A stretch of DNA of 64,000 nucleotides, taken from contig CM030333.1 in the NCBI GenBank assembly GCA_017654855.1, positions 248,001 to 312,000 of the forward strand, written 5' to 3'. Below the pieces are notes generated by a model, which did not search any database, was not told where the DNA came from, and saw nothing but the letters and a program-made list of their open reading frames with translations. Positions 15,161 to 62,573 of the stretch are shown one piece after another. The DNA comes from Podospora anserina. Its lineage: Eukaryota. The position numbers and the translations under genes were made by a program. Numbering within the stretch: the stretch's first letter is position 1; every line of letters starts with the position of its first letter.

Positions 15161-15208
15161 AAAACTATATTAAGATTCTCGAAGAAATCGAAAATCCTAA
15201 TACACTAA

Positions 15209-15278
15209 AACCTCGGCGGAAATCGAACCCGCGCCTCCGACGTAATAGCCGGCGTACTAGGTACTATACTACGAGGTT
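15209..15278 (-). ncRNA. tRNA-like gene inside Gypsy element
   Basis: AACCTCG TA GTAT AGTACCTA GTAC G CCGGC TATTAC GTCGG AGGC GCGGG TTCGATT TCCGC CGAGGTT: perfect 7-bp acceptor stem, T-loop/B-box, 6-nt anticodon loop. Confidence 0.75.
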
Positions 15279-39078: not shown

Positions 39079-42000
39079 TATATTATTAAAGGAAATCATT
39101 ATATAGTTATTAACTAATATATAAAGTAAATATAGAGAGCAAATTATAATTAATTAGGAAAATCATATTTAAATAGGAAACGTTCTAGGAGGAAATAAAC
39201 GATTATTTTTTTATAGAAGAACTAGGACGTAATTAAGTGAAAAATAATTTTTAAGTAATATAATATATGTTTAAATATATAAAATCTTACTTCGATTAGA
39301 TTAATAAAAGAAATATAAAAAATAATATAAGTCTATAATAAAAAGTCATACTTACGTAATACCTAAGCCCGGACTATACGCTATATTGATAAAAGAAAGT
39401 TAAGCGATACTATTAAATAAAAGAGTTTAAAAAATACTTGAATAGTGGAACTGCTATTAAAAAGAAGTTTAATAAAATATTAGGAAAATTAAGAACAGAA
39501 AATAAAACAAAGTTAAGCGAAAGTAATTCAAAAAATTCGCGATATTAAATAACCTAAAGTAAGAAAACGTCTTTAAAGAATATGACTATTGAAAAAAATA
39601 ATTTATAGTCCTTTACGGAAGCCGGTAACCTTTAACGGATTAGAAAAAATATTTTTAGAATTATCGGCGTAAAGCAAAGGTATAATATAAAGACCCGATA
39701 TTTATTAGCGAAATCGTTACTATATAGAGAGGAAGTAAGAAAAATAAACGCCTGCAAGGTATAGTTTGTGAAAAGGATATTTAAGCGGTAATATTACTAA
39801 GTGAAAATATAGAAATAAACTTAATTTCTTTATAGTTCGTATAGTATATGAAAATAGTATGATAAAAAGAAGGAATAAATCGTTATGTAAAGACTATTTC
39901 CTACGTAAAATGTCTACAAAAACTATTAATTTTAAATGTTATAATCGAAGGGAAAACAATCTTGATTGTATTCAATATTATAAATTCAAGACCTTCCAAA
40001 CATATAGTTCTAAAGTAATTATAGTATAGAGACTATAATCTAAATATTGATTAAAAGGAATGTAATTACTTGCGCTTAAAAGAATTTTAAAAGGATTTAA
40101 TCAGCGCATGAAAATTAAAAATATGTATAAAGTAAAGTGTAAGAAAAATACTCTTTACGGTACTATTGTTTAAGACCTAAGAAATAATAATACATTTTAT
40201 CGACATAAGCGGTAAGATCGAAAAAGTAAGGTTAACGACGTTAATAGAGATATCGGAAGTTAATAAGTATATTTATTATAATAATGTAAAAAAAGGCGAG
40301 AAAGAAGCGGTACCGGTAGAGTATCGAGGATACTTAACGTATACGGTTAAATATTTAGAGGGACTTCTAAAGTATGGACCGTAAAACTATAAAATTAAAG
40401 TAAAAGAAGGAACAAAACTACGGCTATTTATGGTTTATTATATTGATAATAGATAAAGTAAGGAATTATAAAAATACTTGAACGAAAATTTAAAGAAAAG
40501 ATATATTAAGGAATCTATATCGCTCATAGGATACACCGTATTTCTCGTATTCAAAAAATAGTAACTTATAACTATATATAAATTATTGCTAACTAAATAA
40601 TAAGACGATAAAAAATAACTACCCGCTACCGTTAATATTTTAATTACAAAGTTAATTAGTTAGTATATTAATAATTTATATACTTAAGAATATTTATTAG
40701 GTACATTTATATGAAGATTAAGAAAAGGATAAATAGAAAATAGCGTTTCGCATACTTTATAGTTATATCGAATATCTTATAATACTTTTTAGGGTAACTA
40801 ATACGCCCGCGACGTTTAAAGCTCTCGTCAACTATATAATCCGGCAGTACTTTAATACAATAATAATATACTATTTTAACGACGGTTTTATTTTTTTACA
40901 TACGCTAGAGGAATATAAAACGATACGTACGAGAGATATTTAACGTACTGTATAAAACCGGACTTTTAATTAATAAAAAGAAGAGCGAATTTTACGTATG
41001 AAAGATAGTATATTTGGAAATATTAAAAAATTATTAAGTAAGGTTTAATAGAATGTAAGAGAATTGTAGTAGTTGAAAACTAATTTATATTATAATTATA
41101 AATATATCTTCAAGAGTTTTTAAAACTTATAAACTTTTATTGGATATTTATTTAGAAGTATATAAGGATTGCGCGGCTATTTAGTTACTTAATGAAGAAA
41201 AACGTAGAGTTCCGGTAAAGGTAGGGGGGAAAATAGGCCTTTTAAGAGCAAAAGAAAATTATTTGAAGGATATAATATTTAAATTATTAAAGCTGAATTA
41301 ACTAGTCGAGGTCAAAATCAATATATTAGATTATACGATTAGTAAATAATTCAGGTTGTAAAATAACGACGGAAGTTTTATCCGGTAATTTTTTTTCAAA
41401 GAAATGAAAGGAAATATATTAGAACTAGTTAATTTATGAAAAAAGTTACTCGCTATTATCGAAGCGTTTCAAAAGTACAGGTTATACTCTAATAATACTA
41501 ATTACGTATCCGAGAACTCGAGGGCCGGGCTTAATAGACCGAAAAGCAGATTACGGTAATCCGCTCGAGCCCCGCGTAAATAATTAAGTTCCCGGTACCG
41601 GAACGCTATAGCCGCGGTAAGGAAAAGTTTAAAGGAATTTTCACCTAGTTTAAATCTATTTTCGTTATTATCTAAACTAATTTATTACTGAAGAGTCTAA
41701 CGTACTATTCACAATTACTTAATTTAAGCAAATAGTATTTATACAGTTCGAACCTATTTTAAACAATTATTATAAATCTTTAATTATTGAATAATAAAGT
41801 GATATAGTCTATCTAGTATTTCTGAAATTTTCTGAATGTTTAAGACCCAGCTTAAAGAGGTATTTAAAAAATAAAATAAGGCAAGGCGCGCGTAGGGGAG
41901 ACTCGTAGGTTTATATTAAACGGGTTTAATAGTGAAGTATACGGCTTTATTTAGGATCGATAACTTACATAATAAAGTTAACGATAGAGGGTTCATATAA

Positions 42001-44419
42001 TTTTTTATAGTAGCTTTTAAAAAAAAAGTAGAAAAAGAATTATATTAAGATTCGAGGCTTAATATTATCAATAAGTATATCGCTATAGCTATACGGATCG
42101 ACGATAAGGAATTCTAATATAGTATAAAGAAAAAAGGTACTACTGAGGATTATTATAGTCATAACTACTTTAACGATAAATATAAACGGTAATACCCTAA
42201 TACTAATTACCTCGGTACTATATGTATAAGACCTAAACGTTAACGCTAATAGTAATAGAGGCTATAGGGCGGAACTAGGTTAGGAATAACTTTAAGTATT
42301 TCAATTATAGGGAAGTGAAATACTTTAAAAAACCCAATCAGATATTCAAATAATTTAGGTAAAAGAAGAAGGTTATTATAGTAATTATTATATCGAGAGG
42401 ACCGAGAATTATAAAAGTCGTAACTATTAAATTCTAGAAGAACAAAGTTGTATATTTCGAAAATACCTTTTATTAATATATTAAATAAACAAACGTGGAG
42501 TTTTAAGAATATAAGGATATTATAAAACGGTTAAAGGTAGAATATAAAGAAGGGAATATTAAATCATAAACTTTATGGGATTAAATAATATAAACTAGTA
42601 CGAAAGTTAAGAAGTATAAGCACTCTATTTTACAAAAGAAATAGATAAAGCAAAGAGTATTAAAAATTTAATATTTTTAAGATGAAATTATAATTATATA
42701 ACGGACCTACGTTACGGACAAGTATACATATAAAAGCTAGGAAAAGCATTACGAAAATAAAAAGGTTATTCATATTAAGCTTTTGACATACTCCGGATAA
42801 GTACTTTTACTTATATAATATAAATTCCATAAAAGAAACGTAGTATAATTTTGTTTTAAATATCCGCAATATCGGCAAATACTTTAGTTTTAAAATATTA
42901 TATACAAATATACAAAGTACTATTAAAGTTAGTTTTTATATAGCTATTAGCCGGTATATAAAGAGGGTAAGAATGGAAACTTCGAACCGGTTAAAATGAC
43001 TAAAATTAAATAGGAATAATACGAAAAGAAACTAAATGATTATTTTTTATAGAGAGTTTAAGACCCGGTGAAAATAAAACCAATCTTTCAATAAAACGGT
43101 TTATACTTGATATATAAGATGTTATTTGAATAAAATAAAGTAGAATGATAATAAGATTATGTTAAAGGAATTCGCTTTAATATATTCTAAAAGTCTCGAC
43201 TTTATATTCTACTTATGAAAGAAGGTTAAGCAGTATTATAAACTATTAACCGAGGTTAAAACTAATACTATAGCTAAAGAATAGAGGCGTAACCGAAGGA
43301 AAGTTCTATAGGGTATAAACGACGAAAGGTAGGAAGAAACTTAACGGTAATTATTGAATGTATTTAATAAGATTAAATAATTCAGCATATGAAAATATAT
43401 TGAAAAAAACATTATCGTTTAAGAAACGACTTGCGACCTTTCGCAGGGGCCGCTACAATTTAACGGACTACGAAAAGTGCCGTCGGAGATATCGGCGTAA
43501 AGCAAAGGTACATAATAATAATCCGATATTCGTTAGCAAAATCACTACTAGATAAAAAAGAAGTAAAAGAAATAAAAGTTTTAAGGAAATAATAGATATA
43601 ATATATTGAAAAAATCTTAGAGTAATAATATTAATAAATAAAAGTACGGAAATAGATTTAATTTTGGTATAAATTATATATTAAGTCAAAATATTATATA
43701 AAAGAAGAATCCATCATCACATAAAAACTATTTTTGACTTAAAAAGTTTATAAGGAAATATTAACTTAAGCTATTATAATGGAAAGAAAAATAACCTTAA
43801 TTATACTCAATAGTATAAATATAAAGCTTTCAAACAATATCATGTTAAGATAATTGTAATCCCAGGATTATAACCTAGATATCAATTAAAAGAATAGTAG
43901 TTATTTACGATTCAAGGAAGTTTAAAAAATATGTACGTAAAAATAGGAAATTAGGCGTATATATAGAATAAAGTATAAAAAAAAGTACCTTTTATAATAC
44001 TCCCGTTAAGAGCCTAAAAGGTGATAGTATATTCCATTAATATAGGTGGTAAAATAGAGAAAAGTAAAGTTAACCACGTTAATAAAACTATCGGAAATTA
44101 ATAAATACGCTTATTATAATAACGTAAAGAAATGTAAGAAAAAGGCGGTACCGGGACAATATTAAAAACATTTGGCTTTTATGGCTAAGTATTTAAAGGG
44201 ATTTCTATAATAAGGACTGTAGGATCACGAAATTAAATTTAGAAAAGGAACTAATTACGGCTATTTGAGGTCTACAATATTAACGATAAGTAAGATAAAA
44301 AACTATAAAAGTATATAAACGAGAATTTTAAAAAAAGGATATTCTAGGGAGTTTATATTATTAATAAACAACCCCATATTTTTTGTACTAAAAAAAACGT
44401 TAAGTTAAAATTATACATA

Positions 44420-46281
44420 ACGTATATTATAAGCGAGTGACCCATATAAGCGAGTGACCCACTTCCCACCACACCGTAACAAACTATCCTCAATTATACT
44501 GCAACAACACTAGGAAGCAACTACAATTATATTAGAAACGGCTGAATCAGATGATTCCCCAGCCTCCTGGCAAGTGCGCGCGTTATGGCCAGGCTTGCCG
44601 CACACACCACAGCACCGAACCCTCGCACGATCTCCCCCTGCATTACTATTATCCGGCTGCGTTTCTTGCACTTCCTCCCTATCCACGGCCTTCTGATCCA
44701 GTAGATCCTGTGCCTCTTGTATAGTAAGTGACCCTCCAAGCCTCACACGTGTTTTTTTGGCTCTCCGGCGCTTACTTAGTACCTTATTGGCCTTACGGAG
44801 CGAAGAAACCTCTGGACGAAGGAGAGCCACTTAGTGTATTATAGCCGTTGTACCCTTAGTAAGCTAGTTTACCGTAGCTAGTATTAAAGTCGGGGAGCTA
44901 TTTTAATGGTTAGTAATGCGAATCTTAATAAGCGTTAACTGTGAGTTGGCTTCTCGAGGGTTATATAGTGTCTGGGAGACCCAAAGTTATATAGTACCGG
45001 GCCGTAAGTTTAGAGGTATTAACGTACGAAGCTTTATATCTAACTTAAAAAGCACCCTCTCTGGATTATACGGTATAAAGTTAATACCCGTAAAGCTACC
45101 CTATATATTCTTCTCTATTATAAAGGCGAAAAAGGTTTCGCGGAAAGTATAAAGGAACTCGAGCTTACTTATATAATTAATATATATACGCATTAAGTCC
45201 TCGATCTAGCGACCGTACGCCTATTTTAACGGCCTAAAGTAATTAATATCGAGTAACTGGAAAAGGTAGGAGGAGTATAGAGGTATATAGAATATAATAA
45301 TATTATTTTACTAATAATAACGCTCGAATTTAATTAAGTAGTAACTTTCATAGCCGTTAAGGATTAATAACCGGTATTTACTTTTTATACGGGGCGCTAT
45401 ATAGTAGTCGAAATACTTAATTTAATCTCAACTTACTATATTAGTAATTTAATTATTATTAATAATTACGATACGTTAAATAAATAATAGATTATATTTA
45501 ATATATTAATTAGTAAAGTAATATTATACGGCTAAAATAATTAAAGGAAGGATAGCTTAGCCGAGGGTATTAACTCCCTGGATTACGGTTACCTATTTGC
45601 GGTTACTAAACTAAGTTAGTTTTACTTTACTAAGGCTATCCGAAGTCGTAATTACTATACCCGCGAAAATAATACCTATTATAAACCTAATTTCGTTAAA
45701 ATTATAAATATTATTATTTATAATACCGTACTTAGCTTTAGTATTTTGTACGAGCGTAAATTACTTAGTAATAACCTTTAGATCCTCGCATTTAGCCCTC
45801 TGGTAATCGTATTTACGCGTAAAACGCGTACGGAGTTATAGCTAGCGTTTAACGAAGTTATGTGCCCAAAGCTTGCCAATAAGGGGCGCGTCGCGTACGC
45901 GTAGCAGTTAGTTAGCTATATCTTCCACACTACGTAATCTTGGTGGAAAAGCTCGCGTATATAGCTTAATAACGTATTAAACAATAGCCTCCTCTTCGGA
46001 CTAAGTGAGCTTCTTCGATTTGGGCGTAGTATCGCGTCGTGCAGGCCAGCCAGCGCGCCGACGCCCTAGAGTCTTACGATCGACTCCATAGATCTTAGCT
46101 GCGGCTCGTTCGCTTAGATTCTTGTCGTTTTGAAGTGCTTGGAGGGCTAAAATTATGTGGGCTTCATTTGAATTAGAAGGCATCTTGGATGGTTGAGGAA
46201 ATTGTTGTTGAGTGCGAAGGTGTTATGTTACGAAGGAAGTGGGTCACTCGCTTATATGGGTTACTCGCTTATAATATACGT
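44420..46281 (-). mobile_element. Fot1/pogo DNA transposon, full length (1862 bp)
   Basis: 47-bp TIRs with one mismatch (acgtatattataagcgagtgacccatataagcgagtgacccacttcc), TA duplication, splits the RT LCVDYR motif. Confidence 0.95.
44510..46183 (-). pseudogene. Fot1/pogo transposase relic
   Basis: ORF fragments MPSNSNEAHIILALQALQ.. and ..RCCGVCGKPGHNARTC; centre riddled with RIP stops. Confidence 0.92.
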
Positions 46282-48959
46282 TAAACTACCGACGATTATA
46301 TAACGAAATAGTAGAAAATAAGTACCCGCTACTGCTGATGATTAATTTATAAAGTTAATTAAATAAAGTATAATATTTTATACGCTTAAACTACCTCTTA
46401 AATTTATTTATATTTAAATTAGGGAAAAGAATAAATAAAAAATAATATTCGGTATACTTTATATTTATTTCAAATACTTTATAAGATCATTCGGGTTAAT
46501 TAATCTACTTACGGCGTTTTAATCTTTCGTTATATATATAATCCGGAAATACCTTTATAAAATAAAAATATATTATCTTAACGACGTTACCATTTACTTA
46601 CGTACTTTAAAGAAATTCCAATACAATATACGAAAAATAAACGACGTATTATACGGAACTAAAGTTTTACTTAATAAAGAAAAGCGAGTTCTATATACAG
46701 AAAATTATATATTTTGGATATTTAATATTTTTAAGTAAAGTCCGTATAGAATCTAGAAAATTTATAGTAGTTAAAGACTAGCTTAAGGTATAATTATGAA
46801 TACATATTAGCAAAATTTAAAGTTTATTAATTCTTATCGGATTTTTATCCGGAGATATATAGATTTTACGCGATTATTGAACTATTTAAGTAAGAAAATA
46901 TAAGGCTCTGGTAAGAGTAGGAAGAAAAGTAGGCCTTTTAAAAGTTAGAAAAATTATTTTAAAGGACCTAATATTCAAATTGCTAGATCCTAATCAACTA
47001 TTTAAAGTCGAGATTAATTTATTAAGTTATACAATCCGTAGATGATTAGGCTACCGAGATAATAACGGAAAGTTATATTTGGGAGCTTTCTTTTCGAAAT
47101 AGCTAAAAGGGGTATATTAAAATCATTCAACTTACGATAAAGAATTACTTGTTATTATCGAAGCGTTTCAGAAATAAAAGCTATATTTTAATAATCTTAA
47201 TTACGAAATGTAGGTCTATGTACATTAGAAAAACTTACAATACCTTACTATTACAAAAGTCCTTAGCGTATAGTAAACTCGATAGTCAAAATTTCTTTTG
47301 AAGTATAATTTTTAAATTATTTATAAAAAGAGTTCGAAGAACATAAAACAAACATATTTAGCCGGTAGGCGGACCACTATAAAAATATACATAGGGAATG
47401 GTTATTATTATTTAAAAAGACGTTGCAACATATCCTTAAAAGATTTACTTTAATTATAAATAACATATTATATAATATATTATAAATAAATTACGTATAA
47501 GAGAATATAAAGGAAAAATAAATAACGATATACGGAATAATACTAATGAGAAAAGTCAAAGCTGTAAAATAGTTAAAAGGATACTTAAGGATATCTATAG
47601 TATAAGAAGCGGACCTACGTAGAGCTAGGTGCTAAAAAGGTATTAACAATGAAAATCTATAGGTTAGGGTTCGGAAAAGATATAGGTATTATTAAAATTA
47701 TAGAAAAAGAAACAATACTTTAATTAATTAAAAACTAAAAATAATATGAAAAAAGCTATTTAGTTATTTTATACGTATCAAAAAGTAAAGGTCATAAAGT
47801 ATAACCCTTGTAGATTTTTTAGGTTATTATTAATAGCTAAATGGCTATAGAGTTTAATTATAGTGAACTTTACTACGAAGTTACTAAAGTTAAAGAATAC
47901 GGTAACCGGTATTGAATATAATAGTATATTAACGATAATCGATAAATTTATTAAATAAAGGTACTTCTTACTTTAAAGAAAGGTCTAACTGATAAAGTAA
48001 TTAATGGATATAGTATTATAACACATTATACTAATATAGGTATAATTAAAAGAATTTGTCACGGACCGCGATATTAAATTTATATCATAGTTTTAAAAAG
48101 CGTTAATAATAAAATGAAAGATAGTAAGTAAAGCGTTTTCCGCCTAATACCCTTAAATAGACGGATAGACGGAACGGTTTAATTAAATTATAAAATAGTA
48201 TTTACGGAATCATTTCAATTCTAAGTAAAATAACTAGGTTAAACTACTACATACCGTATGATTAGTGAACAATATATTATTAACCGAGACGGTAAAAGTA
48301 ATATTTGTCTTCATAAATTATAAATAGAAAGTAAGCTTATGTTAGGGACTGGATATAAAGTTGTCTAGGGCTACAGTCAAAAGAAGTAAGTTATATATAC
48401 TTTATAGTAATCTTAAGGAAAAACTAGAGTTTATAAGAAATAAGATGCGGAAATACTATAACTTCAAAAAGCTCGAAGGACTTTACTTTAAAGGGGGGAT
48501 ATAGTATTCCTTTTTATACGTAATTTACGTATTTAGAGAACTACTAAGAAACTAAACTATAGGAAAGTAGGCCCATTTAAAGATAAAAGGAAAAGATTAA
48601 AAATAGTATTTAAGGTAAAGTTACTTAATATAATATATTTGTAACTATATATCGTTTGAATTTTATTTTTAAAACTCGTATTATTTGTAAATAAAGTTAA
48701 GATTTAGAAAGTAACGGAGGACGGAAAAAAATGTATAATATAGAAAGACTTTTAGAGTTATAGTTTATTTAAACTTAATTAAAATCCTTAATTAAATAAA
48801 TAGATTACCTAACTATGGATAATTTATAGAAACTATCGGTAAACCTAAAATATTTACATAAACTGAAAAAATTGTATTGGTAATATGTAAACTGACCTAA
48901 GCTAAAAGAAGATTAAGTATTTAAGTTTATAGTCGGGTACTTATTAACTTAAATACAAA

Positions 48960-49029
48960 AACTTCAACGAGAATCGAACCCGCGCTTCCGATATCATAGT
49001 CGATATACTATATACTGTATTATAAAACT
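48960..49029 (-). ncRNA. tRNA-like gene relic inside Gypsy element
   Basis: Same 70-nt length and position as the other copies; GCGGGTTCGATTCTCG T-arm retained, rest RIP-damaged. Confidence 0.6.
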
Positions 49030-49080
49030 AATAAATGTTTAGGGATTTACTTACAAATGACGTTATATACTTTAATTGCT

Positions 49081-49726
49081 TTAAAACGTAAAAGAGTTTT
49101 ACCGGTAGTACTTGAATTAATTAAGAAGAAGGGACCGGTTACGTTAAAGCTAGGACTTAGGGAAAGATCAGAAGGGTAGTCGAGGCTTAAGGGGGAATCT
49201 AAGACATAAAGAGCCTATAAAGCGGCGTTCTAAATGGCTTCCAGCTATATAGAGATATCGTAAGAAGATTCGGGCGGTACGGAAATAGCCGACTATACTA
49301 CCTGAGTGTTTTCCTTTAAATACTCCGCGCAAATAGCCGCTCTTTACGAATATAGAGAGAGAGACGTATTTATCTTATTCCGAGAAGCTTAATGATTGAT
49401 TACGAAAGTGAATCCTTAAGTTTTTACTCTTTACGTTCGAGTTTATTTTGCTTTTTTAAGGCTCGAGTTACTATAAAGCAATTAATTATAATATAAAAGT
49501 AAAAAAGATATACTTACGAGCGGAGCCTACGTTAGAACCGTTATACAGGATTTTACGGCGTACGTATTTAAAATACTGACAAGAGCCGGAGATTACAGTA
49601 TAAGGGATCCTGAAAGTAAAATAAATATAGTAAAGTGTTATAGTAGATTTATTGCGGAAGATTCGTAAAGCGAGAGAAAACTAAGTGTTTAGTTTTACAA
49701 TAACGTTTCTATATACAGTTAAATAT
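49081..49726 (-). pseudogene. Antisense Zn2Cys6 ORF relic, variant C
   Basis: 49632-49543 reads Y-YI-Y-FTFRIP-Y-TVISGSCQ-Y-FK-Y-VRRKIL-Y-NG; six TAC/TAT codons with spacing X2,X6,X8,X2,X6. Confidence 0.7.
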
Positions 49727-49817
49727 AATAAAGTACGGTAAAAAAAAAGATTTATAACATTATTAAAGTTAAACAAAAATTAGGCTGTAGGGACTTTAGC
49801 CTAAAAAGGAAGTGTTA

Positions 49818-50163
49818 TATTACGGTTTTGGGAAACGGTAGAGATATAAGTAACTATTGACCGCTGGACCGGGCGATTTTACGGGGCTTACCGTCAAATA
49901 AATAGGACAGACCAATAAAATCTGGACCGAGGACCGTAGTGGGGCTTACGATCCATGGTTCTAAGGTCTATATGTACGGAGGAACTAGCTAGTGTAGATA
50001 AATAGTTCCGTAGTATATAATATAAATTATAAGGTTAGTATCTTAACTATTATAATTAAGACAAGCCATTATTTTATACTGTTTATCTATGCCAAAACAG
50101 GATTATTTAAAAGTGCCTTTGACTAGTATCCGTTTTAGGGGTTCTGGATAGGAGTTCGTCACA
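49818..50163 (+). repeat. 3' LTR (GGACCG-type U3)
   Basis: After purine tract aaaaaggaag; tattacggttttggg...gttcgtcaca. Confidence 0.88.
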
Positions 50164-52651
50164 TTTACCTTTAAAATTTATTTAGAATAATTTCATTTTT
50201 TTAGGAAAAGAATTATGATATATTTAATGGGAAATTTATTTAACATAAAGTTTTGAAACAAATGTAGGTAGTTGATTAAAAAAAATTTAAAACTTGTGAT
50301 TAAGAAAGCAGAATAATAACAGAACTTTTGAAGTTCATTTTATAAAATAATATATACTACCATTTAAACGTTATAATCATTCTGGAAATTATAAAAGCAT
50401 TTAATAACTAACTTGAATTACTTATATTAATAAGGAATTACCTCTAAAAGCTGAAAGTTATTAATTTGATTAGTACTAAATTTATTAAAAGCGTTATATT
50501 ATGAGAAACTAGTTAAATATCTGAATACTTTCTATAAAATACTATGATCACTATTTCAAAAGAAAGTTGTCATTTTATTATTAATGATTTTATAAATTAT
50601 TCTTTACTTATGAGAATTTAATCAAGTAGGTGCTTTTAAATAAAAGGCTTTTTGTAGAGCTTGAAGTAAAAAAAAGTAAAATCTGAAAATATTCTATACT
50701 AACTTCTTTAAGTATTTTCGTTACTTTTAATAAGGTATTCACCGTACTTCTTCCCATATTATACCGGTATTGTACTCTTCTTTTTCTACTTTAATCAATG
50801 TCCAAATTCTAGATTTATATATTAGCATTAATACATCTTTTAATAATTTTAAGAATTTTATAAACTCATTATATTACATTTTTTAAATTCTCTTCTAACT
50901 TATGTTATATTGAAAAAACGCGTAAATATATTTGGATCATAAATATTTATTAAGTATATCAATCATTAATTTTTTAATGGTTAAGGTAATGTATTTTCCA
51001 AATTATATATGTTGTTTTGTTTGTATAATATAAAATAATATTGAATATATCGGAATTTGATTTTGTAATAAATAATAAGTTTATTTCTATATTTAATAAA
51101 GAACATTTTTACATAATATGAATTAAACAATTTGATATATTAATTTGGCTTTTATATAACAGGGGATTAATTTTGTATAGTTTTATGCAGGGTTTATAAC
51201 GTTATCATTTGCGGCTACTTTAGTTCTTTTTATGTTAGTATTAACTTCAACGTTGTAATAGTGGATAAAGCTATTATTCCTATCTCTTATATTAAACTCT
51301 GGCGCTTTGATTTTTAAAAAATAAAGTTTGATTACTACTAACAATTATTATATTTAATATCGATATGTTTAAAAAAGAAGATTGTTAAAAAAGTACCAAA
51401 ACTACTTATAGTCCTCTTCGGAGAGAATATTATTAAACAGAAAAAATTATGAAAAAGATTATTTATAATTTATGTAATTAAATTATCATAAATTAAAATA
51501 CTATAATTATATAAACTTCATTATTAGAATAATTGAAATCTAATATACAATTGTTTTTTATATTTTTGAATTGGTACCATTTTATAATTATTATAAAGCT
51601 AACGTACATTATAAGCGAGTCGCGCACTGGCCATTGCGACGCGTTCTCTCTACACTTAACATCATACTTCTCTACAACTCAACATGCCACCTACTTTAAA
51701 AGAAGCGAGGGTAATCTTAGCCCTTAAAGCTCTCCAAAAGGATGAAAAATTAAGCCTCAGAGCCGCGGCTAAGCTCTATAATGTACTACCAACAACCCTC
51801 CGCGACCGACGCGCTGGCCGGCCTGCACGACGCGATACTACGCCCAATTCGAAGAAGCTTACTCAATCAGAAGAGGATGCTATTATTCAATACGTTATTG
51901 AGCTATATGCGCGAGCTTTTCTACTAAGATTGCGTAGTGTAGAAGATATAGCTAACTAACTATTCCACGTACGTAACGCGCCCCCTATTAGTAAGCTCTA
52001 GGTATATAACTTCGTTAAACGCTAATTATAACTCCGTACGTGTTTTACGCGTAGATACGATTATTCAAGAGTTAAGTATAAAGATCTAAAGGTTATTGCT
52101 GAGTAATTTACGCTCGTACGGAATACTAAGGTTTAGTACGGTATTGTAGATAATAATATTTATAACTTTAACGAGATTAGGTTTATAATAGGTATTATTT
52201 TCATAGGTACAATAGTTATAATCTCGGACGGCCTTAAAAAGGTAATACTAATTTAGTTTAATAATCGTAAATAGGCGATTATAATTTAAGAAGTTAATAC
52301 CTTTAGTTAAACTATCCTTACGTTTATTATTTTAGCCGTATAGTACTACTTTACTAATTAATATACTAAGTATAATTTCCTAACCGACTAGTATATCGTA
52401 ACGATTAATAATAATTAAACTATTAATATAATAAGTTTAGATTAAATTAAGTACTTCGATTACTATATTACGTTCCGTATAAAAAGTAAATACCGGTTAT
52501 TAATTTTCGATAGTTACGAAAGCTATTATTAAACCGAATTCGAACGCTATTATTAATAAAATAATATTATTACGCTCTATATACCTCTATATTTTTCTTA
52601 TTACGTTTAGTTATTTAATATTAATTACTTTAAGCTACTAAAGTAAGTGTA

Positions 52652-53035
52652 TGTCACGGCTTGACACTTTGGTGGGGCGCGGGGCGCACCACGGGCCAAT
52701 CATTAGTACAGGAGCGAGGACCAATTAAAGCAGGATCATTGGGATCGAGGATCGATCCAGAAGAGTCAATCCCAAAAGGGACAGTATCGATAGGATCGAT
52801 GGTCGAGTCAATCGATCCAGGATAGTGCTAGGCTTGGCACAGGGTCTATATATACGGAGGAACTGGCTGGTGTAGATAGACAGTTCCGCAGTATGTAATT
52901 TAAGCTTGTATTCACGGTATTTAGTGTTTACATTGAGACATCTTGTTATGCACTATTTAGCTACACCGAACCAATTGTTAGAAGTTACCTTTAACCAGTA
53001 TCCCTTTCAGAGGTTCTGTACAGGGGTTCGTCACA
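52652..53035 (+). repeat. 5' LTR (GATCGA-type U3)
   Basis: tgtcacggcttgacac...ggggttcgtcaca; CCAAT boxes; TATA at ~52847. Confidence 0.97.
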
Positions 53036-53037
53036 CG

Positions 53038-53046
53038 TTGCATACT
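53038..53046 (+). promoter_or_regulatory. Self-priming primer-binding site
   Basis: TTGCATACT is the reverse complement of AGTATGCAA in the LTR (52890-52898, one RIP change; intact in LTRs 2066, 33482, 38696); no TGG tRNA-type PBS. Confidence 0.75.
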
Positions 53047-53092
53047 CACTTCAACTCTGTCACGGATAAGTTAAAGGCGTCTTTTTACTACC

Positions 53093-56000
53093 ATGGCCCA
53101 ACCCGAGAACGTTCAGATGGGAGGCGTCCCGCCTAGCCTAACTATCGAGGGACCTTTTACGGCAGACGCCAGGTTCAGGGTCACCACGGCTCAATAGCTT
53201 ATCGATCGCGTTAAAGAGTTTAAAGCCGAAGCCCAGTAGACCAGGGAGCAGGTTCTTGCTCTCTCGGCGGCTAGGCCCACGCACGTAACTAAGTTCCCGG
53301 CACCGGAGCACTATAGAGGCGGAAAGGCAGAGCTTAAAGGTTTTTTAATCTAGTTTAAAATTTATTTTCGTTACTACCCGGAATAGTTCGATACGGAGGA
53401 GTCGAAGGTAGTATACGTAGCTACCTGGCTTAAGGATAAAGCTTTTATTTAGTTCGAGCCTATTTTTAACGACTATTACGAGGTAGTGGCGGAGGACCAG
53501 AAAGAGATTACTGTCCAGTGTTTTCGGAGTTACCGAGCCTTCGAAATAAAGTTTAAAAAAATATTTAGGGAATATAATAAAGGTAGGTGCGCGTAAGAGA
53601 AGCTCGCGAATCTACGGTAAATACGTTCGGTAACGGAATATATTATTTAGTTTAAAATTAATAATTTACGTAACGAAATTAACGATAAGGGATTAATATA
53701 AACCTTTTATAATAGCCTTAAAGAAAAGGTAAAGGACGAATTATATAAGGAGGAAAGGCTTAACACTATCGATAAATATATTACTATAGTTATACGGATC
53801 GATAATAAATAATTCTAACGTCGTGCGGAGAAGAGAAACTATAATAATCGGGGTTATTACGGAAATTACCGCTCTAATAATAAACGTAAATAATAATATT
53901 TAACTACTAATTACTCCGGTACTATATATTCGGGATTTATAAATATCGATACTATATAGTAATAAAGGTTATAAGGCTAGGGCTAAAGTAAAGATAACTA
54001 TAAGTATTTTAATTATAGTAAAGTAAGATACTTTAAAAAGGATTACCGGGCACTTAAGTAACTTAAATAAAAAAAAGAGGTTACCGTAATAATTATTATA
54101 TCGAAGGGACCGAGGGTTATAGAAGTCGTAGCTATCGGGTATTAATAAAGTAAAATAATAAACTTCGAAGAAAACTTTAATTAATATACCGAATAAAAGG
54201 AAATAGAGTTTTAGGGGCTACGGGAAGTAATGGAAAGGCTAAAAGCAAAGTATAAAGAAAAAAACCTTTAAATATTAATATTCTAGAATCGATTAATATA
54301 AATTACTATAGAAATCGCTACGAAAGTTATTAAGGATAATAACGTTATATAGTAGGAAGGACTTATTATATAAACGATATTAAAAAAGTAATACGGTAAG
54401 CGTAGGATCGTTATTTCGCAAGAAATATTATTATTTATAAAGCTCGTATATAAATATTAAGAAAAATATTAAAAAGGTAAGAAGGTCGCTAATATCGGGA
54501 TCGCGAAATTATTAAGAAATATATTTATACTTATATAATATATACCCTATAAAGGAAATATAATATAATTTTATTCTAAATATCCGGAATATCGGAAAAT
54601 ACTTTAATTTTAATATATTATATACGGATATATAAAGTACTACTAAAATAAATCGCTATACGGTTACTAGCCGGTACGTAAGTTTATACTAAAATATATA
54701 AAATACTACGTTAAATATACGAACGGTTAGGATATAAATAATAATATATATTTTTAGGAAAAAGTGGTACTAGGTTAGTGCCTAAACCCAAATTACGCAC
54801 TATATTTATAAAAAAAAGTTAAACGATATTATTAAATAAAAGTATTTAAATAAACGATTAAATAAAAAAACCGTTATCGGATATATATATAAAAAAATAT
54901 TAAATATATAAAAGACGGAAAATAGGAGGAAACTAGGTAAGTATAGTTAAAAGACTTTATATTATTAAATAACCCGGAGTAAAAGGATATTTTTAAACGA
55001 TATAACTATTTAAAAAACGATTCGCGGCCCTTCGTAGGGGCCGGTAATCTTTAATAAATTACGAATAGTATTTTCGGAAGTATTAGCGTAAGGCGAAGGT
55101 ATAGGATAATAATCCGGTACTCGTTAACGAGGTCGTTACTATATAAAGAAGAAGTAAAAAAAATAAACGCTTCTAGGTTATAGTATACTAAAAAAATATT
55201 TAGGCGGTAATATTAATAGACGGCGGTATAAAGACAAACCTAATTTCGTTATAGTTCGTATACTAAACTCGTATACTATAAAAAAAAAAAAAGGAATGGA
55301 TCGTTATATAAAAATTATTTCCAACGTAAAAAGTCTATAGAAAAACATTACCTTTAAATATTATAGTCGAAGGAAAAATAACTTTAATTATATTTAATAT
55401 TATAAATATAGGACCCTCGAAGGATATAATCCTAGGGTAACTATAGCATAAAGACTATAACCTAGATATTAATTAGAGGAATAGTAACTATTTATAATTA
55501 AAAGAACCTTAAAAGTATTTAATTAACGATAGGAGATTAGGCATACGTATAGAGTAGAGTATAGGATAAGTACCTTCCACGGTACTACCGTAAGGAGCCT
55601 AAAAAGTAATAATATACTTTATCGATATAAGTAATAAAATCGAAAAAGTAAAGTTAACGACGTTAATAGAAATATCGGAGGTTAATAAATATATTTATTA
55701 TAATTATATAAAAAAAAATAAAAAAAAAGTAATATTAATAAAATATTAAAGATATTTAACCTTTACGGCTAAATATTTAGAGGGACTTTTAAAGCGAGGA
55801 CCGTAGGACTACGAAATTAAATTAAAAAAAGGAGCTAAGCTATAGCTATTTAAAGTTTACTATACTAACGATAAATAAAATAAAAAACTATAAAAGTATT
55901 TAAACGAAAATCTAAAAAAAAAATATATTAGGGAGTCTATATCGCTAGTAGGATACCCCATATTCTTTATACCGAAAAAGGACGGTAATTTACAATTATA

Positions 56001-58641
56001 TATAGATTACCGCTAGCTAAATAACGAGACGGTAAAAAATAGTTACCCGCTATCGTTAATATCTAAGTTACGGAGTTAATTAATAAGGGCGTGATATTTT
56101 ATACGCTTAAATATACCTATCGGGTATACTTATATACAGATTAAAAAAAGAGATAAATAGAAAATAACGTTTTGTATACCCTATAATTATTTTAAGTATC
56201 TCGTAATACTATTTAGGCTAACTAATACGCCCGTAACGTTCTAATCTCTCGTTAATTATATAATCCGGAAGTACCTCGATAAAATAATAATATACTATTT
56301 TAACGATATTTTTATTTATTTATATACTTTAAAGGAATATAAGTAATATATATAAAAAATACTCGACGTACTATACGGAGCTAGACTTTTAATTAATAAA
56401 AAGAAAAATAAATTCTACGTATAAAAAATAATATATTTAGAATATTTAATATCGTTAAGTAAGGTTCGTATAGAATTTAAAAAAATTATAGTAATTAAGG
56501 ACTAGTTTACACTATAATTATAAATATACGTTAAGGAATTTTTAAGGTTTATAAATTTTTACCGGATATTTATTTATAAATATATAAGTATTACGCGGTT
56601 ATTTAATTACTTAATTAAAAAGGATATAGAGTTCCGGTAAGGGTAAAAAGAAGAGTAGGCCTTCCAGGAGCTAAAAGAGGCTATTTTAAAGGACCCGGTA
56701 CTTAAATTGCTAGATCTTAGTCGACCGTTCGAGGTCGAGGCGGATATATTAGATTATACGATTAATAAATAATTAAGATAGCGAAACGACGATAAAAAAC
56801 TATACTTAGTAACTTTCTTTTCGAAGAAATTAAAGGAGGTACGTTAAAACTACCTAATCTACAATAAAAAGCTACTTACTATTATCGAAACGTTCGAAGA
56901 ATGGAGGCCCTACCTTAATAATACTAATTATAAAATACAGGTCTATACGGATTATAAAAACCTATAATACTTTACTATTACGAAGGTCTTTAACGTATAG
57001 TAAACGCGATAGTTAAAGTTTTTTTCGGAATTTAATTTCTAGATTAATTATAAAAAAGGTTCGGAGAACGCTAGGGTAAACGCACTTAGCCGGCGGGCCG
57101 ACCACCACAAAGATACATCCAAGGAGTCACTACTATTACTTAAAGAAACGCTAAACGGTACTTTTAAGTATCTACTATAGCTATAAATAGAGTATTACGT
57201 AGTGTATTGCGAGAGGGCTACTTCCAGTAAGTACTAAAGGAAGTTAGGCAGCGATATTATAGAGTAATATTAATAGAAAAAATTAGAGCCATAAGGCATC
57301 CAAAAAAATAGTTAGGGAAGATTATAGTATAAGAATCGAGTATACGTAATACTAGGTAATAGAACGACATTAGTGATAGAGATTTATGGATCGAAGTTCG
57401 GAGGATATATAAGTATCGTAAAGACTATAGAAAAAATTAAATAATACTTTAATTAATTAAGGATTAAGGACGACGTTAAAGAAATTATTTAATTATACTA
57501 TACGTATAAAAAAACGAGGGTTACGAAGTATAAGCCTTATAGATTTCTAGAGTTATTATTAATAGTAAAACGACTATAAAGTTTAATTACGATAAATTTT
57601 ATTACTAAATTACTAAAGTTTAAAAATACAGTAACTAGCGTTAAGTATAATAATATATTAACGGTAATCGATAAGCTTACTAAATAAGTATACTTCTTAT
57701 TATATAAAGAAACCTAATCGGTAAAGTAATTAATAAATATAGTACTATAATATATTATATTAATATATATATAATTAAAAGAATTTATTACGGACCGCGA
57801 TACTAAATTTATATTAAAGTTTTAAAGAGCGTTAATAACGAGGCTCGGGGTAATAAGTAAAGCGTCTTTAGCTTATTACCCTTAGACGGACGGTTAAACG
57901 GAACGGCTTAATTAAATTATAAAATAATATTTACGGAATTATATTAATTTCGAGTAAAATAATTAGGTTAAACTTTTACTTATAGTATAATTAATATATA
58001 ATATATTATTAATTAAAACGACTAAAGCTATACCGTTCTTCGTAAATTTTAAATATAAAATAAACCTACGGTAGGGACCTAGCGTTAAAGTACCTAAGGC
58101 TAGGGTTAAAGTAAATAAACTATATATACTCTACGGTAAGCTTAAGTAAAAACTGGAATTTATAAAGAAAAGGATACGGAAATACTATAATACTAAAAGA
58201 CTTAAGGAACCTCGCTTTAAAGGGGGAAATATAATATTCCTTTCTATACGTAATTTACGTATTAAAAGACTTAGCAAGAAGCTAGACTATAGGAAAGTAG
58301 GCCCGTTTAAAGTTAAAAAGAAAATATCGGAGACGGTATTCGAACTAAAGTTACCTAGTACGATACGTCTACGGTTATATACTTTTCACATTTCACTTCT
58401 GGAACCCGCACCACCAGCGAATAAGGCTAATATACAGGTAGTAGCGGAGGATAAAGAAAAAGAGTACGATATAGAAGAAATACTAGATTTACGGTTTAAC
58501 AGAGGTTAATTAAAGTATTTAATTAGTTAATTAAGATATCCAGCCACAAATAACTCGTAGGAACCAGAAGCATATCTTAACTACCTAGATAAGCAAAAAG
58601 CATTCCACCGGTAATACCCGGACCGACCAAAACCTAAGTAA
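53093..58641 (+). pseudogene. gag-pol relic
   Basis: De-RIP motifs: KFPAPEHY.GGKAELKGFL, CFNCGKVGHFKKDC (~54005), LIDGG protease (~55215), YYFDDI RT (~56293), YTDHKNL and DALSR RNase H, TDRDTKF and AYHPQTDGQTER integrase, GPFKV, EYDVEEILD..NSWEP chromodomain; true stop uncertain. Confidence 0.92.
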
Positions 58642-58696
58642 TAAAAAGATCTGTGCCCAAGCCACGGAGAGGTATCCATGAACTTAGACACAAAAG

Positions 58697-58766
58697 AACC
58701 TCGGCAGGAATCGAACCTGCGCCTTCGACGTGGTAGCCGACGTACTACACACTACACTACAAAGTT
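58697..58766 (-). ncRNA. tRNA-like (tRNA-Gly-GCC-like) gene inside Gypsy element
   Basis: AACTTTG TA GTGT AGTGTGTA GTAC G TCGGC TACCAC GTCGA AGGC GCAGG TTCGATT CCTGC CGAGGTT then CTTTT; cloverleaf, A/B-box-like motifs, T4 run. Confidence 0.75.
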
Positions 58767-58817
58767 AGAAAGTATGAAGGGGACTAAATATAAGTAGTAC
58801 CACGCGCCTCAACCACC

Positions 58818-59501
58818 CTAGGGAGGGGAAGGCGCGCCGACGGCAACATCTTGGGCGGCCAGGAAGGAAGGACCGGCCACGCCCGGATCCAGGGAGAAGT
58901 TAGGTGACCAGTCGAAGCCTGAGGCAGGACCTAGGAAAGAGAAGTCGGAAGGCAGGGTATTGGAAGACTCTGCCGTGGGACGGCCCCGGGGATCTGGAGA
59001 GGCGGGGGCCGGAGGAGGAGGAGGAGGAGCGTCGCCAGGCGGCGAGACAGACTGTGCGGCCAGCGCAGCTTCCTCCTGCTCAACACGCTCCAGCTCTTCC
59101 ACACTGTCAAGGCCACGGGAGACGGCCGCAGCCATCCGCTCAAACCACATTCGTTTCTATAAGCGTAGGCGGTTAATTTTCTAATCCAAGGCCGCGCGTT
59201 GGGACTCGGCCTCTACCATCTCCGTCTCTAACTAATCGTGTTGGGAGATGACCTTACGGAGCTGCTGGACGGACAACCCACGAGCGTCGCAAAGGGATTA
59301 GTTATACTGTATATAGGAAGCGCAACGATCGGAGACGGAAGGGGAAATCTTGCAGGAGAAGCCACGCCTCTCGTAAAAGGAACAAATACGCTTTATAATA
59401 ATGGCAAACCGTAAGATAGTAGCAAGTAGCTCGTCACGATCCGCGGTTTTCGAGTGCAAAGGTTTAATACCGGGTCGCGCCTTACTTACGCGGTTAAACA
59501 T
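58818..59501 (-). pseudogene. Antisense Zn2Cys6 / coiled-coil / Pro-rich acidic-tail ORF, variant A (227 codons)
   Basis: Track ORFs 59298-59501 and 58818-59150 are in one frame, separated by four TAA/TAG codons consistent with RIP of Gln; C-SF-(Y>C)-ERRGFS-C-KISPSVSDR-C-AS-(Y>C)-IQYN*SL-C. Confidence 0.85.
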
Positions 59502-59591
59502 AATAAAGCATAATAAATAGGGGAAAAAGGGGAGAACTTACAAGCGTTGGTAGACGTAGGAGAGTAGGCTAGGCCGACGGGACTTCGGCCT

Positions 59592-59602
59592 AGGAGGGGG
59601 AG
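59592..59602 (+). promoter_or_regulatory. Polypurine tract
   Basis: aggagggggag 5 nt before the 3' LTR. Confidence 0.8.
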
Positions 59603-59607
59603 CGTCG

Positions 59608-59991
59608 TGTCACGGCTTGACACTTTAATAGGGCGCGGGGCGCACCACGGGCCAATCATTAGTACAGGAACGAAGACCAATTAGAGCAGGATCATTAGGA
59701 TCGAGGATCGATCCAGAAGAGTCAATCCCAAAAGGGACAGTATCGATAGGATCGATGGTCGAGTCAATCGATCCAGGACAGTATTAGGCTTAGCACAGGG
59801 TCTATATATACGGAGGAACTGGCTGGTGTAGATAGATAGTTCCGTAGTATACAATTTAAGCTTATATTTACGGTATTTAGTATTTACATTGAGACATCTT
59901 ATTGTACACTATTTAGCTGCACCGAACTAATTGTTAGAAGTTACCTTCAACCAGTATCCCTTTCAGAGGTTCTGTACAGGGGTTCGTCACA
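59608..59991 (+). repeat. 3' LTR (GATCGA-type U3)
   Basis: Direct repeat of 52652-53035. Confidence 0.97.
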
Positions 59992-62573
59992 ATGTATAAT
60001 TATTTAATCGAGGACTTAATACGTATATATATTAATTATATTAATAAGTTCGAGTTCCTCTATACTTTCCGGGAGGGTTTTTTCGCCTCTAAATAAAGAA
60101 GAATATATAGGGTAGCTTTACGGGTACTAGCCTTACGCCGTACAATCTAAAAAGGGTATTTTTTAAACTAAATATAAAGCTTTATACGTTAATACCCCCG
60201 ACCTTACGGCCCGGCACTCTATAACTTTAGGTATTTTAGATATTATAAAACCCCCGAGAAACTAATTTATAGTCTACGCTTATTAAAACTCGAATTACTA
60301 ATTATTAAAATAGCTTCCCAACTTTAATACTAGTTACTATGGACTAGCTTACTAAGGGTATAATGGCTATAATATATAAGGTGACTCTCCTTCGGTTAGA
60401 GGTCTCTTCGCTCTGTAAAGCTAACGAGGTATTAAGTAAGCGCCGGAGAGCCAAAAAAATATGGGTGTAGCACGAAGGATTATTTACTGTGTAAGATGTA
60501 AAGGATATACCTGACTAGAAGGCCGTGGGTGAGGAGGCAGCGCAAGAAACGCAGCAGGATGGCGGTAGTGCAAGGGGGGCTCGTACGAAGATTCGGTGCT
60601 GTGGTGTGTGCGGCAAGCCTGGCCATACTGCACGTACGTGCCAGGAGGCTGTAGAATCGTCTGATTTATCTATTTCCGATGGAATTATCGTGGTTTCTTA
60701 GTATTGTGGTTGTATAATTGAGGGTAGTTATTGTAGGGTAACGGAGAGTGCGCGACTCGCTTATAATGTACGTTAAGGTTTATTAGGTTTGAGTTAATAT
60801 TATATTTTCAATCATTAAAGTGTATATATATATATATCAAGGAGGTTTTATACGTAATTTACGTACTTTCCAAAATGTCTTTACCCTATCTTACCTATAC
60901 CCTACTTATCCTATAACCCTTCTTACTTTTGTTATTAGCTATACCCCTATCCCTACTCTCTCCTCTTCAGCTTTAATCTCTACTTTTCAATAACTCTGAT
61001 TTGGTATCCTACTTAAAACCGTGTAAAATTACATTTTTCAAAAAGCTCTATATTATACTATTATTCATTTCTTTCCATAAAAATCTTTATACAAACTTAT
61101 TATTAGTTAGTATATAAATTACTATATATTAAAAGTGAAATATAAGTAAATAAATGTTGTTCTTATTAACTAGATTATTTAATTTGTATCTAAAGATTGA
61201 TTCTTCTTTTAATTCTTTAATTAAAATTTAATCATCCTTTTCTCTTCATAGGAAGCAATATTTTATCGGTATTATATCTATCTTTTTCACACTAATCTCG
61301 TAGCCTATTATACTAGTTGGTTTTTTATATGACGGATAAATAGTTCTTTTCTGTGTAGTTCTCTTAAAGCCATTTTAGCCCCCTATTGTTTATATTTCAT
61401 TGGTCGTTTCAACACTGACGAGGCTATTTTGCCGTCTTTTATATTACCTTACGCCCGGGCACTTTGGTTTTCTTCTTTTAAATTACTTATTATAATTATA
61501 CTTTATTTATAGGGACCTAACTAGCTAGGTCTCTACGTGTAGAAGTCTTCCTTATACAGGTTAAAGTAAGAAAATCCAAAGTTATAAAATTTTTATATAC
61601 TTATTTTTTCAATGTATTTGTCACTTTCAATAATTAACTAATCATGGTTCTTTTTATTAACATTATAGTATTATAGTCTTATCTCTTATTTCTTTTTTAT
61701 TAAAAATTGCAAACTTATATTTAACTTCTCTATTTTATTTTTTTAGAATTTTTCAACTATATAATACTATTGATAAGTTTTGTATGATGTTTAAAATCTT
61801 TATAAATTCTTTTCTATTTATATTTTCTGATTCAATTATGAAGTTAAAGCTAAGATATACCCAAATTATTAGTTTAAACTTTCCTCAAAGTAAAAGGTTT
61901 AAAAGTTTGATTATAAAAATTTATTTAATGATTAGTAATGATTAGTCTATCAGCAGTTAAAGTATTCTATTTCAAATCATTCAAATTTTTTAAATTTTCT
62001 TTAGGTTAATAAAATAAATATTGGTTTTATTCAGGATAGTATTTAATATATCAAAATTTACTTACGGTTTTTAAAACTATTTAAGAGAAAATATATAGAA
62101 TTAACTTCCGTTTTCTATTATTGATTTAATAGTATATTTCATTCTTGAGTTATTTATAAAATAAAAATTAGAATCTATACAGGTTTTTAAAGCGCTGTAA
62201 TATCATTATTAACGATTGTTTGAATTATTAATCATAAATATTTATTTTATTATTTTCATAAAAATACAGTTAATATTTCTTTTCTTTACACTATACTTAA
62301 ATGTTTTTCTTGAATGATTTATTATTTTTATCCCCTATTTAGTTTTATATTAAAGGTTTTATTAAAAAATCCATTAAAATTATTTGAGAGAAAATAGAAT
62401 ATCTAAAGTGTTGAATTATTTATTAAAGATTAGAATAATAGTATAATTATTCCAGTATTAAACCGTAATTGAATTAATAAATATATATAGATTATAAATA
62501 TTCAACCAAAGGTTTCTCTTATTTTTAATAATATTTCATTTCAGAATAGAATAATCAAAAATTGAAATAACAT

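Follow-up and report, generated by a model that had tools for sequence, protein, structure and literature searches.

A tRNA-like unit, probably captured by an ancestor, between pol and an antisense gene in degraded Gypsy elements of Podospora anserina

What is a tRNA-like sequence doing inside a Gypsy retrotransposon, on the strand opposite to the element's pol and just behind a second gene on that opposite strand? The question is raised by the 64,000 nucleotides of Podospora anserina DNA analysed here (assembly GCA_017654855.1, contig CM030333.1, positions 248,001 to 312,000), the whole of which we call the window. A sequence-only reading had described in it a cloverleaf embedded antisense in every Gypsy copy. 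We ask below what the sequence is, where it may have come from, whether it has been conserved, and what it might have done for the element.

The host element and its primer site

The window is AT-rich (26% GC, free of N; most 2-kb bins have 17–36% GC), and self-BLAST reveals nested, diverged copies of a single element, approximately 65–75% identical to each other. The copy that carries the best-preserved tRNA-like sequence has these landmarks:

52652–53035, plus strand: 5' LTR (TG..CA), preceded by the 5-bp target duplication GTGTA; 93.75% identical to 59608–59991
53036–53049, plus strand: primer-binding region of the self-priming type, complementary to LTR positions 52890–52898 and not to the tRNA-like sequence
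55603–58641, plus strand: pol, with reverse transcriptase, RNase H, integrase SH3 and a chromodomain remnant (Pfam RVT_1, RT_RNaseH, SH3_Tf2-1) and 60 in-frame stops
59608–59991, plus strand: 3' LTR, with the purine tract GGAGGGGGAG (59593–59602) before it and ATGTA after it (self-BLAST and sequence)

For the Pfam search, the in-frame stops of the window's pol were written as X; 59 of the 60 are TAA or TAG, and the stop codon of pol itself lies at 58639–58641. The Pfam Chromo domain was matched only in L001, an intact relative that is described below. By its Pfam domains and LTR hallmarks, the host is a Tf1/Tf2-like chromovirus (Ty3/Gypsy) degraded by repeat-induced point mutation (RIP), and all copies of the family in the window are now inactivated by RIP. 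A second repeat family, whose copies are 78–85% identical (30959–32457, 44411–46288, 51589–52651 and 60007–60772), lies within or next to the Gypsy copies; one of its members splits the element at 41568–49828 at approximately 44420–46296.

Could the tRNA-like sequence be the element's own primer? The sequence-only reading had supposed that the element primes itself and does not use the tRNA-like sequence for this purpose, and the arrangement next to the 5' LTR agrees: positions 53038–53046 (TTGCATACT) are complementary to LTR positions 52890–52898 (AGTATGTAA) with one RIP-type mismatch. Allowing 3 mismatches, the 3' end of the tRNA-like sequence has 7 complementary sites (4.8 expected), and none of them is adjacent to an LTR. 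The self-priming layout and the lack of an LTR-adjacent complement rule the tRNA-like sequence out as the element's primer.

The tRNA-like unit

The tRNA model of Rfam (RF00005, gathering score 29 bits) matched the minus strand of the window at three places, and these were the sole Rfam matches in the 64 kb. A fourth place scored under the threshold in the same search and was recognized by alignment. The components are as follows:

58696–58766, minus strand: best-preserved copy of the tRNA-like sequence, 54% GC, a 7/4/5/5-bp cloverleaf with anticodon loop TACCAC and T-loop GGTTCGATTCC (Rfam, 43.1 bits; ARAGORN; sequence)
15208–15278, minus strand: second copy (Rfam, 43.3 bits; ARAGORN)
48959–49029, minus strand: third copy, strongly RIP-mutated, 35% GC (Rfam, 30.7 bits)
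27005–27075, plus strand: fourth copy, decayed and situated in an inverted element (gap-free alignment)
58692–58695, minus strand: TTTT run abutting the last tRNA-like base, resembling a Pol III terminator (read from the sequence)
58767–58817, minus strand: 51-nt spacer from the antisense ORF stop to the tRNA-like sequence, containing TTATATTTAG at 58792–58783 (sequence)

The cloverleaf that had been proposed for three copies is therefore real by Rfam, all three exceeding the gathering score, and the coordinates first given for it miss one base at the 3' end; at the fourth place, the suspected decayed trace is also genuine. The tRNA-like sequence is present in all four window copies that contain that part of the element. 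In the best-preserved copy it sits in a 176-nt spacer, with 51 nt separating it from the stop of the antisense ORF and 54 nt from that of pol.

Both of the putative Pol III signals, a B-box-like sequence and a T run, are present. By inspection against consensus motifs, GGTTCGATTCC of the best copy is a perfect fit to the B-box, and the A-box region fits partially (approximately 9/11). CCA is not encoded at the 3' end. What the element carries is a complete tRNA-gene-like unit, comprising cloverleaf, partial A-box match, perfect B-box match and T-run (58695–58692), without CCA. ARAGORN detected two of the copies and reported both as "tRNA-???", with the anticodon and isotype not assignable. The sequence-only reading had likened the 3' half to eukaryotic tRNA-Gly(GCC). 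In a column-wise de-RIP reading of three copies, 21/21 stem positions are paired, and ARAGORN returned "?(Gly|Trp)". Because the folding energies of single copies are no better than those of shuffles (z −0.7 to +1.1), tRNA identity rests on the covariance model and the alignment. Farther along the antisense direction, the pol stop region at 58636–58648 (plus strand) reads TAATAAAAAG, which contains AATAAA in the sense direction and TTTTT in the antisense direction approximately 50 nt past the tRNA-like sequence; the region may hold a second terminator or a poly(A) signal, and it is not conserved between copies.

Does the element carry a working tRNA gene? The scores above the Rfam gathering threshold, together with the B-box and terminator, are what such a gene would offer, but 31–43 bits is a modest excess over the 29-bit cut-off. 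Moreover, the anticodon loop has 6 nt in all four copies (the loops being TACCAC, TATTAC and TATGAT), the D-loop is without GG, and ARAGORN assigned no isotype, the de-RIP reading included. By its short anticodon loop and the missing GG, the tRNA-like sequence is non-decoding, as the sequence-only reading had suspected, and a decoding tRNA gene carried by the element is close to refuted.

A different possibility is that the sense strand is the one that matters, i.e., that this region of the genomic RNA is the full-length complement of a host tRNA and serves as a tRNA-binding site. In the yeast element Ty3, the primer-binding site is bipartite, with one half at the 3' part; the region at issue here is likewise situated in the 3' portion of the genomic RNA, and the plus strand of one copy folds as well (−21.7 kcal/mol, z −1.25). 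We nevertheless judge this very improbable, given that the primer site has the self-priming layout, with no 5' site matching the tRNA-like 3' end, that G-T pairs of the minus strand become A-C mismatches on the plus strand, and that the tRNA model gives matches on the minus strand alone. We know of no host tRNA with the tRNA-like sequence.

The antisense six-cysteine ORF

Upstream of the unit, on the same strand, lies a protein-coding sequence:

58821–59504, minus strand: antisense ORF of 228 codons in one frame, with a six-cysteine cluster, then a coiled coil, and four RIP-type in-frame stops (homologues, alignment, fold hits)

The tRNA-like sequence begins 51 nt after the stop codon of this ORF (58820–58818), matching the "about 50 nt downstream" of the sequence-only reading. 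All four in-frame stops are TAA or TAG. Three homologues, P0002–P0004, were found (E-values of 1.7e-40, 1.6e-36 and 7e-18), and the two named ones come from the Sordariomycetes Hirsutella and Parathielavia. In the alignment to these homologues, two tyrosines of the window's ORF stand opposite cysteines and one stop stands opposite glutamine; we read these replacements as RIP-type changes.

The earlier label of "zinc cluster" fared less simply. Six cysteines, spaced C-x2-C-x6-C-x9-C-x2-C-x7-C, are invariant in 7/7 aligned intact or nearly intact homologues, and the Gal4-type (Zn2Cys6) cluster has the spacing C-x2-C-x6-C-x(5–12)-C-x2-C-x(6–8)-C. The family as a whole (the window's ORF, P0002–P0004, L001, L003, L004, L013 and L026) consists of proteins of approximately 190–225 residues with a helix of some 50 residues after the cysteines and an invariant VEELE motif. 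Pfam, including its zinc cluster entry PF00172, gave no match for the window's ORF or for the intact homologues. An AlphaFold model of middling confidence (pLDDT 68) was compared to the PDB using Foldseek; all 11 matches were Zn2Cys6 domains (Pho7, Leu3, Gal4, Hap1 and Cep3), and these were weak (E 0.15–2.6). A profile search of PDB sequences yielded insignificant matches only, among them residues 12–45 of Cep3 (E 3.8). The cysteine spacing and the weak fold-level similarity thus speak for the label and the missing Pfam match against it; "zinc-cluster-like" appears to be a fair, if unproven, description.

Two compositional features of this region may be recorded. The bin containing the antisense ORF (58001–60000) has 46% GC, as opposed to 25–27% in the pol of the same element (54000–58000), and the antisense ORF region is the most variable between copies, with 28–45% transversions plus gaps. 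This region may have escaped RIP for want of a similar duplicate.

Related elements without the unit

Is the unit a regular part of this kind of element? Scanning metagenome contigs with the ORF alignment yielded 40 related loci (206,836 nt in all), 28 of which also hold the end of pol. None of the 40 contains a tRNA detectable by ARAGORN or by Rfam at the gathering threshold. A covariance model built from the four copies in the window likewise matched none of the 40 loci at E-values up to 10, recovering only its four training copies.

In all 28 loci holding both, the pol end and the ORF stand tail to tail. In 23 of these, pol and the antisense ORF overlap by 53–293 nt, as measured between aligned conserved ends and hence independently of stop codons; because of this overlap, there is no room for a tRNA-like sequence in those loci. 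The remaining five have positive spacers of 36–154 nt, three of which stem from pol alignments that end early. In relatives whose pol aligns to the end of the chromodomain, that end typically falls approximately 64 nt inside the ORF, whereas in the window it falls 183 nt beyond the ORF stop. The intact locus L001 illustrates the common arrangement: its ORF spans 631–1290, and pol, on the other strand, ends at 1109, such that the ORF overlaps the end of the Chromo domain. In L007, a pol-frame alignment that ran through the tRNA-like region was rejected; it is a low-similarity basic tail rather than homology.

The ORF match carries 1–13 in-frame stops in 34 of the 40 loci, and the pol stops of the relatives often fall at Trp or Gln positions. 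Most of the loci resemble RIP-damaged copies that stem from the genomes of fungi in the communities sampled. The sampled relatives are built without the unit; most being degraded, they are not shown to be active. The statement that "every Gypsy copy" bears the cloverleaf consequently holds for the window, where 4/4 copies with that region have it, and fails beyond it, with 0/40; structural conservation in related elements, by which the sequence-only reading had proposed to judge its claim, is absent. As an observation in its own right, these related retrotransposons share a conserved tail-to-tail gene overlap, in which an antisense six-cysteine ORF extends over the 3' end of pol.

Origin of the unit

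How did the window's family come to differ? The segment that lies at −64 to −30 before the ORF stop in the relatives aligns twice in the window, in 8/8 relatives examined:

58830–58864, minus strand: copy 1 of the duplicated segment, 35 nt, coding for the C-terminus of the antisense ORF (aligns to −64 to −30 of 8/8 relatives)
58598–58632, minus strand: copy 2 of the duplicated segment, antisense of the C-terminal end of pol (...YPDRPK) (aligns to −64 to −30 of 8/8 relatives)

Similarity to these segments was assessed by strictly scored alignment against shuffles. A z of at least 2 was reached by the pol-side copy in 24/28 loci and by the ORF-side copy in 12/28, compared to 1/28 for the tRNA-like stretch. 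Altogether, the window's element has gained approximately 232 nt, with at least 35 nt of the overlap duplicated; the gained part includes the T-run and approximately 34 nt of new sequence upstream of the tRNA-like sequence.

These comparisons make it very probable that an ancestor of the family acquired the tRNA-like sequence, in antisense orientation, where pol and the ORF had overlapped tail to tail. The capture would be specific to this family because none of the 40 relatives carries a tRNA and because a duplicated piece of the overlap flanks the new sequence; since the overlap segment was duplicated, each gene would have retained its own end. In having neither the CCA of a mature tRNA nor the body and tail of a SINE, the gained part resembles a fragment of a tRNA gene locus. 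Template switching during reverse transcription, or recombination at the DNA level, may have been the source of the insertion.

An alternative origin had been named in the sequence-only reading: a decaying tRNA-derived SINE that retroposed into the ancestral element, the duplication being its target-site duplication. The unit does have a tRNA-type head with a B-box, and relative to the related elements it is indeed an insertion flanked by a duplication. However, the T-run follows directly after the cloverleaf, leaving no tRNA-unrelated body or tail, and the approximately 34 nt of new upstream sequence would not be carried by a Pol III transcript. Target duplications of SINEs are typically shorter than 35 nt, and the duplication found here is at least that long. 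Further, no free-standing copy was found in the 64 kb of the window or in the 206,836 nt of the 40 related loci. The insertion itself stands, and its being a SINE is quite improbable.

Conservation among the window copies

If the unit was captured, was it then preserved? Differences between the copies, in pol and in the tRNA-like sequence alike, are mainly transitions (18–32% of sites, as opposed to 1–11% transversions). Such an excess is the expected signature of RIP, which makes C-to-T changes on both strands, and it points to a filamentous ascomycete as the source of the DNA. As transitions are uninformative in RIP-mutated DNA, constraint was measured by transversions and gaps.

In the three good copies, only 2 of the 71 columns of the tRNA-like sequence have a transversion or gap; 27 of the 71 have transitions, a RIP load as heavy as elsewhere. 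Over the 3.6 kb that could be aligned, 71-nt windows have a median of 9 transversion/gap columns, and 79 of 3628 (2.2%) are as conserved as the tRNA-like sequence; 75 of these fall among the 2590 in pol, in its most conserved parts. Pairwise, the transversion-plus-gap rates are 1.4–2.8% for the tRNA-like sequence, 19–26% for the two flanking spacers and 5.6–10.4% for pol. The difference from the flanks is pronounced (Fisher p 2e-4 to 3e-5, in comparisons that share copies and are not independent), and that from pol is marginal (p 0.18, 0.086 and 0.043 in the three good copies, again not independent). The tRNA-like sequence has no indel in any of the four copies, as against 6–34% gaps in its pol-side flank. 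The 51-nt spacer differs by 4–6 non-transition changes between copies, and the 54 nt downstream of the tRNA-like sequence are the least conserved stretch (28–40% transversions plus gaps). All of these values come from three or four related copies, with flanks that are AT-rich and hard to align.

The fourth copy behaves differently. Compared to the copy at 58.7 kb, its tRNA-like sequence has 42% identity, 44% transitions and transversions at 10 of 71 positions; these 14% transversions exceed the 7.3% of its pol (p 0.04) and fall below the 43% of its flanks. Constraint is thus not uniform, since in this copy the tRNA-like sequence has changed more than its pol.

We also examined pairing, using the structure written from the Rfam alignment. 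Stem cells are paired in 90.5% of cases, compared to 83.9 ± 1.9% in shuffles (reached by 0/500) and 34–48% with slid partners. Paired positions had been said to change together between copies. This is seen in 5 of the 21 pairs, but all of the changes are transitions and the count was reached by 118/500 shuffles, which is not significant. The apparent compensation on both sides of a stem is weak evidence because the stem arms, as inverted repeats, expose the same context to RIP on opposite strands.

Must the unit have had a function at all? It could be a neutral passenger: a fragment of a host tRNA gene or pseudogene, captured once by recombination or template switching and inherited by descent, functionless, with its apparent conservation reflecting few copies and poorly alignable flanks. 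The design of the element evidently does not need it, as 40/40 related loci do without; the non-canonical 6-nt anticodon loop, the insignificant, RIP-type covariation, the marginal comparison to pol and the fourth copy, decaying faster than its pol, all fit this account. What such a passenger explains poorly is the transversion-plus-gap rate, which is lower than in the neighbouring non-coding flanks by a factor of 7–13 for the three good copies and of 3 for the decayed one, as well as the ranking of the tRNA-like sequence among the 2.2% of 71-nt windows with the fewest such changes and its freedom from indels. We regard this account as a possibility of real weight, though clearly less than an even one. 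Whether selection retained the 71 nt during the diversification of the family strikes us as evenly balanced; the evidence from the aligned copies is moderate, and the fourth copy dissents.

A possible role between convergent genes

The explanation that we prefer, tentatively and with slightly less than even confidence, is that the captured unit acted as punctuation between two convergent transcription units. We propose this role because of the strand of the unit, its position close behind the antisense ORF, and the fact that the cloverleaf is preserved as a whole and not in its two promoter boxes alone. The unit would have been active as a punctuation mark while the family was active. A Pol II transcript of the antisense ORF would run into the cloverleaf, which RNase P and RNase Z would excise from it. 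Excision would set the 3' end of the mRNA 51 nt past the stop of the antisense ORF, and it would remove read-through RNA antisense to pol. Pol III and TFIIIC on the A and B boxes might form an additional roadblock. The three roles put forward in the sequence-only reading, a TFIIIC chromatin barrier, an RNase P/Z cleavage signal and a source of small RNA, are all candidates at this stage.

RNA processing as the specific mechanism is possible but doubtful. A non-polyadenylated mRNA end is expected to need a stabilizing motif, and by inspection no A-rich or U-rich motif of this kind is present in the 51 nt upstream (58817–58767). As for the roadblock, a bound Pol III complex would hinder the element's full-length sense RNA too.

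The fullest version of the proposal is that an autonomous LTR retrotransposon separated its overlapping genes by a duplication and a captured tRNA gene, which was then selected as a processing or Pol III signal ending the antisense transcript. We consider this version rather unlikely. If true, it would be a transposon-borne counterpart both of mascRNA-type 3'-end formation and of the borrowed 5S promoter of Cassandra.

Comparison with known systems

The tRNA-like 3'-end module of long Pol II transcripts is typified by MALAT1 and its mascRNA. The unit described here resembles that module in being a non-decoding cloverleaf that follows a putative Pol II unit on the same strand, where an RNase P cut would make the upstream 3' end. 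It differs in that inspection revealed no triple-helix or A-rich stabilizer upstream and in that the upstream RNA would be a short protein-coding message inside a transposon. In yeasts, tDNA and TFIIIC serve as chromatin barriers and Pol II roadblocks. Here too, B-box-like and A-box-like sequences lie between two predicted transcription units; unlike at yeast tDNA barriers, a roadblock would also impede the element's full-length RNA.

Borrowing of Pol III genes by retroelements is known: Cassandra has taken up 5S, and SINEs have tRNA heads. The Cassandra TRIM retrotransposons of plants have a 5S rRNA-derived sequence with a Pol III promoter inside their LTRs (bioRxiv 10.1101/2023.07.14.548913). 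Like Cassandra as described there, the present family is an LTR family in which all copies have a sequence derived from a Pol III gene, here apparently conserved and with a putative internal promoter. By the same account, the Cassandra sequence is 5S, situated in the LTR, in sense orientation and in a non-autonomous element; ours is tRNA-like, internal, antisense and in an autonomous chromovirus, and it lies between two convergent protein genes, unlike that of Cassandra.

The antisense gene brtn of the Boty-like elements was reportedly first described by Zhao et al. in 2011. In the cited passages on Boty-like elements of Botrytis and Sclerotinia, this gene lies between pol and the 3' LTR (PMC7264820, PMC8365987, PMC4227169). 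The elements portrayed there, the window's family and 28/40 of the related loci have one plan in common: they are fungal Gypsy elements with a chromodomain, in which an additional ORF on the antisense strand lies after pol and before the 3' LTR. The likeness is one of layout, and those passages mention no tRNA-like sequence. The antisense ORF family may correspond to brtn.

Fungal tRNA-derived SINEs, such as AfuSINE2 (PMC5063351), resemble the unit in that a tRNA-related Pol III head occurs as an insertion. Compared to such SINEs, the unit is without body and tail, its terminator abuts the cloverleaf, its upstream flank was apparently captured with it, and the sequence searched contained no free copies. 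A full-text literature search, evaluated at the abstract level, turned up no earlier description of an autonomous fungal Gypsy element with an internal antisense tRNA-like sequence between pol and an accessory gene.

Significance

Without selection on it, the unit would be no more than a commonplace pseudogene, captured into repeats that are now dead and RIP-mutated. If it was selected, the family would offer a compact natural case of overlapping convergent genes that were pulled apart, and of a tRNA-like RNA serving as a transcript boundary in fungi. It might then also represent a route by which a transposon limits its own double-stranded RNA.
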